From assembly GCA_963804975.1 (NCBI GenBank), contig CAWDSG010000002.1:405015-469014 (forward strand): a DNA stretch of 64,000 bases, given 5' to 3'. Positions 1 to 32,032 of the stretch are shown here, in pieces (the first letter of the stretch is position 1; each line of letters opens with the position of its first letter). The notes beneath the pieces were generated by a model. That model saw only the letters and a program-made list of their open reading frames with translations, was not told the origin of the DNA and ran no database searches. The translations under genes were made by a program, and so were the position numbers. This DNA is from an uncultured bacterium. Its GTDB lineage: Bacteria > Patescibacteriota > Minisyncoccia > Phycocordibacterales > GWA1-40-21.

Positions 1-246
1 AGGAACATCAATTTTTGCTGAAGAAATGCGATGGCGAATAAGCTCTTCCACTATTTCCGCCCTAGCACTTCCAAATTCGAACTGAGAACGAAAATGAAGC
101 AGTTCTTCAAGTGTTTTTATCGAATAGAGAGTGTCTTTAAATGATCCAATATCACAATCCCTCATAGGAAAGGTTGTGGGGCTTGGTAGTTCCGGAAACG
201 TAAAAACCATTTCAACAAATTCAACTTTCTTCTCTTTTTTAGCCAT
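1..246 (-). CDS. hypothetical protein, N-terminal part (gene runs off the window start)
   Basis: ATG at 246..244 on minus strand preceded by AAGGAGA SD; frame open to position 1 (MAKKEKKVEFVEMVFTFPELPSP...). Absent from ORF track because truncated. Confidence 0.4.
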   Translation of the reverse strand, partial: MAKKEKKVEFVEMVFTFPELPSPTTFPMRDCDIGSFKDTLYSIKTLEELLHFRSQFEFGSARAEIVEELIRHRISSAKIDVP

Positions 247-6074: not shown

Positions 6075-7253
6075 TTATTTAAATTTTCTCACTCGTTCAG
6101 CCATATCGGACATTTCATCCGTACAAACGACAAAAACTTTGACCGGAGAAAAAGCCGAATTTATTTTTTTATCTATACCGACAGTATTGTTATTTACTTT
6201 TTTATTGATTTTTATTCCCAAGGGTTCAAGACCTTTGCAAATCCTTTCCCTTATGACAAATGACCTTTCCCCTATCGTTCCGGAAAATACCAAAGTATCC
6301 AATCCGCCCATTTCCGCCGCATACGAACCGATATATTTCTTGATGCTCAAGATAAATTTCTGCATCGCAAGTTTGGCGTCTTTATCGCCATTCTTTTCAA
6401 GTTCCAAAAGATCCCTGACATCAGAGCTTTTGCCGGAAAGTCCGAGGAGCCCGCACTCGTTGTTAAAATAAGCTTCAAGCTCTGTCGTATTTTTGTTTAA
6501 TTTTTGCCCAAGATACATTACAGCGACAGGATCAATATCGCCCACGCGTGTGGACATTATAAGCCCCTGAAGCGGAGTATAGCCCATAGAAGTATCAAAA
6601 CTTTTTCCATTCTTAACGGCAATCACACTCAAGCCGCCTCCAAGATGACAAATTATCAATTTTTCAGGGAGATTGCCTTTGGCAGACAGTTTATTTACGA
6701 TTGAACCTGCGGAAATGCCGTGATATCCAAAATGAAATATATCCAAATTTTCAGAAACTTTTTTCGGTATAGCATAATATTTAATAAAATCCGGAACATC
6801 TTTATGAAACGCGCTGTCCGAAATTCCCACAATCGGCGTATTTGAAAATATTTTCCTGATTTCGGTTATTTCTTTCAATGTTCCCGGAACATGGCGCGGA
6901 GCTTCTTCTTTTTCGTCCGTTATTTTTGAAATGAATGATTGGTCAACAATTCTATCCGATTGAAAATAAGTTCCCGGAGCCACAACTCTAATTCCAATTG
7001 ATGAAATATCATCTTTGCTTGCAATAATTTTCATATCAGTCGCTTTTTTTATGAAATACTCCAGTGAATCATTAAAGATCTCCGTTGTAATATTTTGTGT
7101 TGCATCTTTCCCTTTTCTGCCGGTATCAAAAAAACTGACAATCGGCTTATTCGCTTCAATTTCAAAATGACCAAAAAATAATTCCTCCTTTTCATTATAG
7201 ATGGAATATTTCGCCGACACGCTCCCCGTATTTACAATTAAGTATTTTTTCAT
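6075..7253 (-). CDS. ackA: acetate kinase
   Basis: MKKYLIVNTGSVSAKYSIY N-terminus and ICHLGGGLSVIAV...MGYTPLQGLIMSTRVGDIDP motifs of the acetate/propionate kinase family. Confidence 0.85.
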   Translation of the reverse strand: MKKYLIVNTGSVSAKYSIYNEKEELFFGHFEIEANKPIVSFFDTGRKGKDATQNITTEIFNDSLEYFIKKATDMKIIASKDDISSIGIRVVAPGTYFQSDRIVDQSFISKITDEKEEAPRHVPGTLKEITEIRKIFSNTPIVGISDSAFHKDVPDFIKYYAIPKKVSENLDIFHFGYHGISAGSIVNKLSAKGNLPEKLIICHLGGGLSVIAVKNGKSFDTSMGYTPLQGLIMSTRVGDIDPVAVMYLGQKLNKNTTELEAYFNNECGLLGLSGKSSDVRDLLELEKNGDKDAKLAMQKFILSIKKYIGSYAAEMGGLDTLVFSGTIGERSFVIRERICKGLEPLGIKINKKVNNNTVGIDKKINSAFSPVKVFVVCTDEMSDMAERVRKFK

Positions 7254-24139: not shown

Positions 24140-24215
24140 TGGCCTTATCGTCTAACGGTTAGGACATAGCCTTCTCAAGCGTTAGAATCGGGGTTCGATT
24201 CCCCGTAAGGTCACC
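24140..24215 (+). tRNA. tRNA-Glu(CUC)-like; all arms canonical except a poorly paired anticodon stem (possible pseudo-tRNA or unusual tRNA)
   Basis: Acceptor GGCCTTA/TAAGGTC, D-arm GTCT..GGAC, loop TTCTCAA with U33 and anticodon CTC, T-arm CGGGGTTCGATTCCCCG, encoded CCA. Anticodon stem TAGCC/GCGTT pairs at only 2 of 5 positions. Confidence 0.5.
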
Positions 24216-24239
24216 ATTTCGTGCTAGCACGAGATATAT

Positions 24240-30235: not shown

Positions 30236-30504
30236 AAAAATAAAAGGGTTCCGCACGGAACCCTTTCGGTCAAGCCACAATTTGTTAATTGGCGCGTGGT
30301 ATTTCACTTATGCTTCATTTTCGACTCCAGAATTACTGGCATAATTCTTTCAGTGTCTCCCACGTATTCTACTCAACCAAATAACTCTTATAGGCCCAGT
30401 AACGGGGATCGAACCCGTCCCACCAAAGTTCCTACTCCCATGATGCCTTTCATGAAGGAACCCGACAACTTGGTAGTGCCATGAGAACTTACTGTTGTTA
30501 TCCC
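30236..30504 (-). ncRNA. candidate ~270-nt small RNA of unknown class, with its own promoter and terminator; contains a tRNA-like T-arm
   Basis: Minus strand: TTGACT-N17-TAATAT promoter right after the lysS stop, and the intrinsic terminator GAAAGGGTTCCGTGCGGAACCCTTT + T-run at the 3' end. Internal GGGACGGGTTCGATCCCCGTTACTGGGCC T-arm/acceptor-like element. CCAGTAATTCTGGAGTCGAAA resembles a tmRNA 5' end, but no plausible tag ORF. Confidence 0.35.
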
Positions 30505-30559
30505 AAAAATATATTAATATTTTAAAATAATAAAGTCAAGAAAAAAAATAGTTTTTATT

Positions 30560-32032
30560 TTATCCCCTTGGTCGCATAAACGGAAAAATTTGGCATTCGC
30601 GGGCGGATTTGTCCATAAGAAAAATAAAGAGCAGTTCTGAAAAACCAAATCCGAATGTCGGCGGCATTCCATACTCAAGCGCTTCCACAAAATCGCTATC
30701 CATCATCTGCGCTTCCTCGTCCCCTTCTGCGCGAAGCTTTGCCTGCTCTTCAAACCTTTGCATCTGATCAATCGGGTCATTCAATTCGCTGAAACCCTTG
30801 CCCATTTCATTTCCGGCAAGTATCACTTGGAATCTTTCCACTAGATTTTTATTTTTCTCCATTCTCTTTGCAAGCGGTTCCATTATTACCGGGACATTCA
30901 CAAGAAATCCCGGGCCGGCAATCTGCTTTCTGCAATATTTCCAAAGTGCGTCAATGCCGCGATTCATATTGAATCCTTTCCTGTCATATTCCACTTTCAA
31001 ACTCTGCAATTTCTTTTCTATTTCTTTCATATCTGTTTTTAGCACATCAATATCGGTCGTTTTTTTGATCGTTTCAACATAATCATACTTTTCCCATTTC
31101 TTTCCTAAATCTATATCAAATCCTTTTATCTTGAATTTCAGCGTGCCGAATATTTCTTCCGCGATATATTTATACAAATCCTGTACAAATTTCATACCCT
31201 CGTTGTAATCGGAATATGCCTGATAAAATTCCACCTGCGTATAATCCTGCAAATGCTCGGCATCAACACCCTCATTTCTGAAAATTCTGCCGACTTCATA
31301 AACCTTCGGAAAACCGGCAACAATGAGACGCTTGAGCCAAAGCTCCAGAGAAATTCTTAAATAAACATCCGTGTCATACGCGTTATAATGCGTGATGAAC
31401 GGCTTGGCTTCCGCTCCGCCTGCGGTATTTTCAAGAACTGGTGTCTGTACTTCCATAAAACCTGATTTTTCAAGAAATTTTCGAATTGCGACGAAAAATT
31501 TTGCTTTTTTCTCAATCATATCTTTGACTTTCGGATTGAATATGATGTCCAGATATCTTTTTCTCAATCTTTCTTCTTCATCGGCAAGGCCATGCCATTT
31601 CTCCGGAAGCGGGCGCAAAGATTTGGCAAGCATTTTCCAATCCGCGACTTGCAAAGTTTTTTCTCCTCGCTTCGTCACAAAAAGTTTTCCGGAAATTTCC
31701 ACAAAATCCCCGATATCTGCCGTATCGGAAAATAAATCAAAAAGTTTGCCTGACCGGCCAGGTTCATCCATTTCGTCGCGTTTCAAAAGCCCCTGAAAAG
31801 TTCCTGTGCCGTCATTTATATTAAAAAATACAAGTCCGCCCTGCCCCCTGATGGACATTATTCTACCAACAAGATGAATATCTTTTTCTTTTTTGGATAT
31901 TTTTTCAAAATCAGAAACAACTTCAGCGAGCAAATAATCTTTTTTGGAAACTGCCGGGTAAGGATTTATACCGAGCTTCTCAAGCTTTTTCAGTTTTTCT
32001 ATTCTGGTATTTCTTAATTCTTCAAAAGCCAT
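30560..32032 (-). CDS. lysS: lysyl-tRNA synthetase (class II)
   Basis: N-terminal OB anticodon-binding domain plus class II catalytic core, 490 aa. Confidence 0.9.
   Translation of the reverse strand: MAFEELRNTRIEKLKKLEKLGINPYPAVSKKDYLLAEVVSDFEKISKKEKDIHLVGRIMSIRGQGGLVFFNINDGTGTFQGLLKRDEMDEPGRSGKLFDLFSDTADIGDFVEISGKLFVTKRGEKTLQVADWKMLAKSLRPLPEKWHGLADEEERLRKRYLDIIFNPKVKDMIEKKAKFFVAIRKFLEKSGFMEVQTPVLENTAGGAEAKPFITHYNAYDTDVYLRISLELWLKRLIVAGFPKVYEVGRIFRNEGVDAEHLQDYTQVEFYQAYSDYNEGMKFVQDLYKYIAEEIFGTLKFKIKGFDIDLGKKWEKYDYVETIKKTTDIDVLKTDMKEIEKKLQSLKVEYDRKGFNMNRGIDALWKYCRKQIAGPGFLVNVPVIMEPLAKRMEKNKNLVERFQVILAGNEMGKGFSELNDPIDQMQRFEEQAKLRAEGDEEAQMMDSDFVEALEYGMPPTFGFGFSELLFIFLMDKSARECQIFPFMRPRG
31748..31761 (-). 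repeat. GC-rich palindromic element copy (CCTGACCGGCCAGG), in frame in lysS
   Basis: Encodes EPGRSGK. Confidence 0.55.

Follow-up and report, generated by a model that had tools for sequence, protein, structure and literature searches.

A predicted non-coding RNA between lysS and mraZ

The window analyzed here is a 64-kb (64,000-nucleotide, nt) stretch of contig CAWDSG010000002.1, assembled from an uncultured patescibacterium. On its minus strand, within a gene order assigned by Pfam as mreC-PBP2-greA-lysS-[RNA]-mraZ-rsmH-ftsL-ftsI-mur, lies a predicted non-coding RNA of ~269 nt; in what follows, RNA nt 1 corresponds to window position 30504 and RNA nt p to window position 30505-p. In its 3′ two-fifths, this RNA carries a copy of the ribosomal L1-stalk head, comprising the top of 23S rRNA helix 76 (H76) together with H77 and H78 and their kink-turn (K-turn) 77/78, and a canonical tRNA-type T-arm stands upstream of it. 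The L1 stalk is the portion of 23S rRNA with which the ribosome holds tRNA by the elbow.

An initial annotation had described the element as an unclassified RNA, running from promoter to terminator and carrying a tRNA-type T-arm, and this general description holds. The two sequence strings that it quoted, GGGACGGGUUCGAUCCCCGUUACUGGGCC and CCAGUAAUUCUGGAGUCGAAA, were located at 30421-30393 and 30339-30319, respectively, and the strong intrinsic terminator that it placed about 270 nt downstream of the promoter is likewise present. The promoter-like site itself is found directly 3′ of the lysS stop (at 30560), and its hexamers match consensus at nine of twelve positions; because ~3.5 matches of equal quality would be expected by chance in the AT-rich 1.1 kb scanned, the site alone is weak evidence of a dedicated promoter. 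As lysS has no terminator of its own ahead of this site, transcription would cover the RNA even without a dedicated promoter, and the RNA could alternatively be made as a 3′ extension of the lysS message. The absence of a credible open reading frame (ORF) was also borne out: sense ORFs do not exceed 30 amino acids (aa), the longest (26-30 aa) cross structural helices or the terminator, and stops are dense in all sense frames, which leaves no tag-peptide frame. A 62-aa antisense ORF returned two spurious matches only among 1.84 billion representative proteins, both artefacts of tRNA repeats. Homologues of the RNA sought in protein databases by way of such a spurious ORF likewise yielded eukaryotic tRNA-repeat artefacts or nothing.

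The 3′ part of the RNA is a copy of the L1-stalk head

Three independent tests confirm the identity of the stalk domain. One used a covariance model built from Escherichia coli 23S rRNA nt 2102-2187 alone, with the textbook pairs of H76, H77, and H78 and with the candidate left out of training. This model has a single match in the 64-kb window, at 30383-30286 on the minus strand (42.2 bits, E 6e-11, model positions 1-86 of 86), and one match, again full length (45.4 bits), in a metagenomic Paceibacteria contig, L098, described below; no match was found across 758 kb of relatives' loci. The Rfam family LSU_rRNA_bacteria independently places its positions 2126-2215 on window 30385-30284 (24.2 bits, E 5e-6). 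In local alignment against the whole E. coli 23S rRNA (L222), the best alignments of the window RNA and of the L098 RNA both fall on nt 2106-2180 (that of the window RNA on nt 2108-2180), with scores of 39 and 38; shuffled sequences scored 24 ± 2.9, and the maximum of 100 shuffles (36) lies below both RNAs. The 5′ domains of the two RNAs had no match to E. coli 23S. The stalk sequence reads GUAGAAUACGUGGGAGACACUGAAAG...CUGGAGUCGA...GUGAAAUACCACG in the window RNA, as compared with GUAGGAUAGGUGGGAGGCUUUGAAG...UGGAGCCGACCUUGAAAUACCACC in E. coli 2112-2178. The domain is a copy or mimic rather than rRNA itself, since it lies outside any 23S gene: Rfam reports no rRNA family at threshold in the window, and the flanking genes are lysS and mraZ. 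A first sequence-only score between the window RNA and L098, calculated outside the search pattern, was not significant; the homology of the two RNAs is argued from structure-aware tests.

The correspondence extends helix by helix through sequence and secondary structure, and includes the 5-bp H77, the base of H78, the 3-nt bulge, the GAA/GGA K-turn, the GCCA tip, both T-loops, and the platform G and A (Table 1). Across five sequences (E. coli, the window RNA, L098, and two phage copies introduced below as L223 and L224), pairing is retained in 98.2% of the cells at L1-stalk pairs, as compared with 36-49% in controls with slid partners, and compensatory change is seen at 17 of the 23 pairs. 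Between the window RNA and L098, 12 of the 30 pairs in the T-stem, H76, H77, and H78 are compensatory, one is changed on one side, and one is broken; the compensatory pairs include two of five in the T-stem and three in the stem of the H78-like hairpin. This hairpin is of the Kt-7 type, with the pattern GAC/NNN/GAA, 8-bp stem, tetraloop, and GGA/GUC, and of the 2072 NGAGTC sites in the compared DNA (1.8 Mb), only those of the window and L098 have its geometry. The string UUCUGGAGUCGA, which the initial annotation had taken for the 5′ end of a transfer-messenger RNA (tmRNA), is in fact the tip and 3′ strand of the same K-turn hairpin, that is, of 23S helix 78.

The double T-loop motif is defined by core residues AG..A and UG..A and by platform residues (PMC3664808). 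The window RNA, L098, L224, L223, and E. coli agree at all six core residues, AG..(U)A and UG..A, and at the counterparts of G2112 and A2169. As judged from sequence, the platform on which tRNA elbows dock appears intact in the window RNA. The RNA departs from the ribosomal stalk in that the ~100-nt domain sits within a 269-nt transcript, H76 is limited to ~9 bp and closed upon itself, the junction between H78 and H77 (J78/77) carries a 10-nt insertion, and a T-arm stands upstream.

The T-arm is as canonical as first described, with a 5-bp stem and the loop UUCGAUC. The 16-nt linker that separates it from the H76-like helix has the same length in L098, and no CCA follows it in the window RNA. 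The long arm in the 5′ domain is not conserved in sequence with respect to L098 or L224, and the weak closing helix is the least certain part of the fold.

Table 1. Features of the RNA and its surroundings in the window, with equivalent positions in E. coli 23S rRNA. MFE, minimum free energy; Kt, kink-turn.
Feature	RNA nt	Window position	Strand	Basis or equivalence
Promoter-like site, TTGACT-17-TAATAT		30511..30539	-	9/12 consensus positions
Predicted transcript, ~269 nt		30236..30504	-	Promoter-like site, terminator, and fold; ends predicted
Long arm	29-85	30420..30476	-	MFE fold; stops 1 nt short of T-arm
T-arm, ACGGG-UUCGAUC-CCCGU	87-103	30402..30418	-	Canonical tRNA-type; 5-bp stem
16-nt linker UACUGGGCCUAUAAGA, T-arm to H76-like helix		30386..30401	-	Holds the "acceptor 3′ strand" of the initial annotation
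L1-stalk domain (H76 top, H77, H78)	120-221	30284..30385	-	Copy of 23S rRNA; covariance model, Rfam LSU, local alignment
H76 top	120-128/213-221
Platform residue G133	133	30372		G2112
T-loop 1, AGAAUA	135-140			E. coli 2114-2119
T-loop 1 AGAAUA, then H77 5′ strand CGUGG		30360..30370	-	Equivalence to E. coli 23S
H77 (5 bp)	141-145/206-210
GA	146-147			G2125 A2126
H78 with Kt-77/78	148-182			Identical GCCA tip loop
K-turn hairpin: GAC/ACU/GAA, 8-bp stem, loop GCCA, GGA/GUC		30323..30357	-	Kt-77/78
J78/77 strand GAAAAUG..., T-loop 2 UGAAA+UA, H77 3′ strand CCACG		30295..30322	-
T-loop 2, UGAAAUA	199-205			E. coli 2167-2173
A201	201			A2169
Weak closing helix, 3′ strand AUUGU, with RNA nt 10-14 (window 30491-30495)		30277..30281	-	MFE fold; least certain part
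Intrinsic terminator GAAAGGGUUCCGUGCGGAACCCUUUU, then U run		30236..30267	-	11-bp GC-rich stem at 30267-30242
TTCAYAACCTGTTGATAAC box, hairpin, and MraZ-box block		30232-30020	-	Same block in relatives: L001 5452-5700; L070 5810-6000

Recurrence and distribution

Relatives of the RNA were sought in metagenomes with a pattern combining the T-loop with CTGGAGTCGAA, and in IMG/VR with the stalk signature. The metagenome scan returned 34 loci, 33 of which are chance matches adjacent to tRNAs; the remaining locus, L098, is a genuine relative. It lies on a Paceibacteria contig of 34% GC whose prolyl-tRNA synthetase has its best matches among Zambryskibacteria-like Parcubacteria, and the RNA occupies positions 1275-1597 between a paaX-like gene and proS. 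The L098 RNA has an 18-bp closing helix and a fold z-score of -4, and carries an 11-bp GAAA-capped hairpin in place of the long arm. An RNA of this type is absent from the same spacer at the proS loci of the nearest relatives.

The IMG/VR scans identified two further stand-alone stalk copies outside rRNA genes, both on viral contigs. In L223 (IMGVR_UViG_3300033064_001671, 6905-6990, plus strand) the copy scores 72 bits with the E. coli model and has neither a T-arm nor an rRNA gene; it begins 18 nt after an ORF for a 78-aa membrane protein, and a strong terminator lies downstream. In L224 (IMGVR_UViG_3300037067_008077) the stalk copy at 6265-6353 on the plus strand scores 52 bits with the E. 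coli model and matches Rfam LSU positions 2128-2213 with 41.7 bits. The L224 RNA as a whole lies at 6110-6360, and its part upstream of the stalk contains two T-arm-like hairpins and a 7-bp acceptor-like pairing, GGGGGUG/CAUCUCC, that includes a G3.U70 pair and is followed by A; this 5′ part has a weak, 16-bit match to tmRNA. No gene for an aminoacyl-tRNA synthetase (aaRS) was found near either phage copy, and BLAST against phages found no homologue.

In the window RNA, L098, and L224, the T-arm is followed after 26, 27, and 27 nt, respectively, by the L1-stalk head, which starts with UGNGN; the T-arm in each case has a perfect 5-bp stem and a loop of the form UUCRANN. T-arm, linker, and stalk together span 30418-30284 in the window, 1373-1500 in L098, and 6228-6353 in L224. 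A T-arm at this fixed spacing is absent from E. coli 23S rRNA and from L223.

In the group to which the window belongs, distribution is sporadic. The LysS encoded in the window has affinity to Paceibacteria/Parcubacteria; an identical protein occurs once in a collection of 15 billion proteins, and no other relative exceeds 83% identity. Neither 80 lysS loci from related GTDB species nor three from closer relatives have the RNA downstream of lysS. In these relatives, the lysS-mraZ spacer keeps a TTCAYAACCTGTTGATAAC box and hairpin, followed by GTGGGA repeats (MraZ boxes) before mraZ; the box and hairpin are probably the ancestral lysS terminator. In one such locus (L001), lysS is directly followed by this conserved element and the mraZ upstream region. 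Immediately upstream of the block, insertions differ from lineage to lineage: the window has the RNA described here, L070 a small ORF, and L216 and L217 a tRNA-Thr_ED gene. Since relatives that lack the RNA carry other insertions at the same spot, the RNA gene is a lineage-specific insertion of ~330 bp in a variable spacer. A search for the ends of a mobile element at the locus found AT-rich low-complexity repeats only. Overall, the gene is accessory: a self-contained unit of promoter, RNA, and terminator that occurs sporadically and of which phage carries a version.

Relation to known RNA classes

The initial annotation had raised the possibility of a reduced or permuted tmRNA, in which the T-arm and the adjoining UUACUGG would form an acceptor piece and the coding piece would begin with CCAGUAA followed by UUCUGGAGUCGA. 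The 7-nt complementarity between UUACUGG and CCAGUAA does exist, as proposed, but the pairing is not conserved in L098, where the supposed 5′ acceptor strand corresponds to GUUAGAC. This sequence forms the 3′ side of the covarying H78-like hairpin and lacks complementarity to the strand 3′ of the T-arm. In the window RNA, position 3:70 of the proposed acceptor stem would be A-U; the other register gives C3-G70 with a G1.G72 mismatch, and neither gives G-U. The strand 3′ of the T-arm continues as G-CC-U rather than NCCA. A switch operating through alternative pairings of this strand was also considered and set aside; the positions concerned are not conserved between the window RNA and L098.

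Scans for known RNA families gave no support to a tmRNA either. ARAGORN made no call at the RNA locus and reported three tRNAs elsewhere in the window; as a positive control, it called a genuine permuted tmRNA in an IMG/VR viral contig (L081, 5915-6297, minus strand), a two-piece gene with the tag AANDDYYGDVRLAA. At Rfam gathering thresholds only the three tRNAs were recovered in the window, and a search of 551 nt at E≤10 reported no meaningful family at the locus, tRNA and tmRNA included. With the laxest filters and a 161-nt search, RF00023 and RF04321 (tmRNA_permuted) matched the 17-nt T-arm alone with 7.4-7.8 bits, as compared with a gathering score of 47, and RF01849-51 gave no match beyond the T-arm; the model that did match the RNA was instead Rfam LSU. 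No cloverleaf was found by ARAGORN or RF00005, with implausible calls appearing only at 60-80% of ARAGORN thresholds. No smpB was found in the 64-kb window or the compared loci. Patescibacteria normally have a standard tmRNA, with 5252 listed in 6765 genomes, together with 20 permuted ones (PMC11915505 Supplementary Table 2). The latter are probably misbinned. The RNA does share with the tRNA-like domain of tmRNA a T-arm with a UUCGAnn loop and the lack of a D stem, and the L224 version has an acceptor-like stem with G3.U70; the window RNA lacks the alanine identity pair, CCA, tag frame, and pseudoknots. A tmRNA is not supported, and we regard the two-piece tmRNA as a reading with next to no chance of being correct: its supports are the canonical T-arm with the 7-nt complementarity and the weak T-arm matches, and the supposed 5′ end is H78 of an L1-stalk copy. 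The acceptor-like pairing and 16-bit match in L224 would be compatible with distant descent of the 5′ domain from a tRNA- or tmRNA-like gene.

The alternative suggestion of a tRNA-like regulatory RNA or novel small RNA comes nearer, although it missed the feature that defines the molecule, its 23S L1-stalk domain. YrlA and other bacterial Y RNAs, which have a tRNA-like module and are bound by Ro60/Rsr, are similar in general form. Like the RNA described here, they are small and stand-alone, with a canonical T-arm and paired 5′ and 3′ ends, and are known from both bacteria and phages; an origin from tRNA is presumed in each case. An assignment to YrlA/Ro60 was rejected. The T-arm is not followed by a UAGCUCAAUGGUAGAGC-type D arm, the "D-like" string is a strand of H78, the RNA has neither a canonical D-arm nor the GNCGAAN0-1G motif at its 5′ end, and there is no rsr within 4 kb (no TROVE domain was found by Pfam in the 10 neighboring genes); YrlA, for its part, has no rRNA-like domain. 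Readings as a group I intron, RNase P, signal recognition particle RNA, hammerhead, or box C/D RNA found no support in Rfam, and the motifs concerned are explained by H77 and H78.

The double T-loop is also the module by which the apex of T-box Stem I and J11/12-J12/13 of RNase P stack on the tRNA elbow. These are structural analogues without H77/H78 homology, and the window RNA has no specifier, T-box sequence, or catalytic core. Both Candidate Phyla Radiation (CPR) copies lie beside genes for class II aaRS (lysS and proS), and T-box Stem I combines the same double T-loop module with a K-turn (PMC3664808). These resemblances raise the idea of a cis-regulatory, T-box-like leader that binds tRNA and controls its neighbor (proS in L098; lysS or mraZ in the window). 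We hold this to be very improbable. Rfam reports no T-box match at E≤10, no specifier or alternative antiterminator was found, and the terminators do not overlap the conserved helices; additionally, the window RNA lies downstream, not upstream, of lysS, its own downstream gene mraZ has a separate conserved upstream region, L098 proS has a promoter-like site of its own beyond the terminator of the RNA, and the phage copies have no aaRS gene nearby.

Proposed function and alternative explanations

The explanation that we favor, at roughly even odds, is that of a stand-alone L1-stalk copy with a T-arm that acts through contacts of the L1-stalk type. The stalk head would offer a platform for elbow docking, and the tethered T-arm could serve as a built-in elbow-like ligand that occupies the platform in cis or is displaced by tRNAs. 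The RNA might thus be a portable stalk/elbow module. It could, for instance, hold tRNA elbows or act as their decoy, or do the same with factors reading the surface formed by the L1 stalk and E-site tRNA. If uL1 is encoded in the genome, it may bind as well, at the GGGAG/AUACC site, which is intact.

Several points weigh against this explanation. The transcript and its ends are predicted from sequence only, and only three examples that combine T-arm and stalk, plus one of the stalk alone, have been found. The J78/77 insertion of ~10 nt is specific to the window RNA and adjoins T-loop 2, where it might disturb the platform. The T-arm appears to lack a D-loop partner, which makes a true face of the G19:C56 type hypothetical. 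Docking in cis is a geometric guess. Covariation in H76-H78 could in part be inherited from the 23S rRNA of each host; if the copies arose or were gene-converted independently, such covariation would follow and would therefore imply no selection on the small RNA. The absence of uL1 from the genome, which bears on the choice of ligand, is likewise deduced rather than observed.

The competing proposal with the most in its favor, which we nonetheless consider unlikely, is that the RNA is a sponge or regulator of uL1: an enlarged version, acting in trans as a high-affinity decoy, of the L1 operator of rplK/rplA, which would titrate free uL1 and thereby tune L11/L1 synthesis or ribosome assembly, and in which the T-arm would do no more than stabilize or mark the RNA. 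L1 recognizes the same motif on rRNA and mRNA, and the uL1 operators of E. coli, Firmicutes, and archaea mimic the H77/H78 junction (PMC3616713). The window RNA has a helix of this operator type, with an internal loop containing a G.A pair and an unpaired A and with conserved G-C pairs on either side; its junction nucleotides, GUGGGAGAC ... GAAAUACCAC, equal those of E. coli 23S. Over its whole extent, which takes in H77, the GA/AUA internal loop, and the initial pairs of H78 (GGGAG...GAAAUACC), the site in the window RNA, L224, and L223 does not differ from that of E. coli 23S. L098, by contrast, has lost the equivalent of G2125, one of the G residues of the protein site, and has retained every elbow-docking residue.

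Operators need only 37-41 nt, stand before rplK/rplA, and lack the H78 tip and double T-loop head (PMC3616713), whereas the RNA is a separate molecule that retains the head in full, with the H78 tip and both T-loops. It does not lie beside rplK/rplA; neither gene was found in the scanned parts of the window, and its neighbors are not ribosomal protein genes. The fixed spacing of the T-arm would have no role in a pure uL1 decoy. Finally, the genome does not appear to use Shine-Dalgarno (SD) sequences: none of 49 genes (ORFs of at least 120 aa) has an SD-like motif (GGAG/GAGG/AGGA) upstream, as compared with a background of 7.7%. A TATAAT-like box precedes the ATG of many window genes by 5-12 nt, a sign that their mRNAs may be leaderless; this pattern fits the Parcubacteria that lack both anti-SD and uL1 (PMC9297842). 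The SD-less trait is reported to overlap with the uL1-lacking OD1-L1 Parcubacteria (PMC9297842; PMC5220378), and by this analogy the organism probably belongs to the uL1-lacking group, with uL1 probably not the main ligand. Because the docking residues are invariant in all copies while L098 lost its G2125 equivalent, because of the T-arm spacing, because operators are shorter and precede rplK/rplA, and because of this SD-less character, we infer that docking between RNA and RNA, with the T-arm in cis or with tRNAs in trans, is to be preferred to titration of uL1.

A bolder extension of the elbow-docking explanation, to which we attach little probability, would make these RNAs a hitherto unrecognized mobile class of portable L1 stalks, each with an elbow-grabbing head and a T-arm, shared by ultra-small, uL1-less CPR bacteria and phages and acting in trans on translation. 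Possible roles include the capture of deacylated tRNAs or their transfer, competition with the ribosomal L1 stalk for E-site tRNA, and docking onto ribosomes or onto factors that read the stalk-elbow surface.

It is more doubtful still that the RNA is a non-functional relic, that is, a scrap of 23S rDNA joined to a fragment of a tRNA or tmRNA by illegitimate recombination or a mobile element and transcribed only incidentally, as the 3′ end of the lysS message. The sporadic distribution, the tendency of the spacer to collect unrelated insertions, the chance-level promoter match, and the 10-nt insertion in the window copy would all suit such an origin. A relic would not be expected to preserve the layout of T-arm, 26/27 nt, and stalk in three independent assemblies from different lineages and phage, nor to keep 98% of its pairs, many of them compensatory, and all six core T-loop residues; the RNA also has a strong terminator of its own, and the L098 version adds its 18-bp closing helix and fold z-score of -4.

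Full-text literature searches returned no description of an L1-stalk mimic or L1-stalk-like RNA. Double T-loop docking of the tRNA elbow is known in the L1 stalk, RNase P, and T-box leaders, and a free RNA joining stalk and T-arm would be a fourth setting, as well as the first with ligand-like and receptor-like parts on one molecule. On present sequence evidence, the RNA would unite mimicry of an rRNA module with double T-loop docking in a setting that is new: a free-standing molecule with a tethered T-arm. It resembles the L1 stalk itself in structure; in logic it is like operators that mimic rRNA and small RNAs that mimic tRNA, such as YrlA and the tRNA-like domain of tmRNA. Its occurrence in CPR bacteria with unusual ribosomes (many Parcubacteria lack uL1, and SD use is absent here) and in phage contigs hints at accessory interference with, or compensation of, L1-stalk function. 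For annotation, these observations serve as a warning that a T-arm accompanied by strings like "GGAnUCGA" may reflect rRNA mimicry and not tmRNA.

Additional observations

Elsewhere in the window, at 24141-24216 on the plus strand, ARAGORN reported a "tRNA-???" with the 4-base anticodon ctca; Rfam gives the same region 45 bits as a tRNA with one base inserted. The most plausible reading is a gene resembling tRNA-Glu(CUC) in which a single C bulges from the 3′ strand of the anticodon stem.

Three of the compared loci (L087 at ~750-1100, L091, and L104) contain an element composed of a T-arm-like hairpin, CTGGAGTCGAAAAAG, and a terminator, flanked by the 21-nt inverted repeat GGTGATGTCAGTAGGGGTTCG and its complement. 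This element looks like a small mobile element and is unrelated to the L1-stalk RNA.

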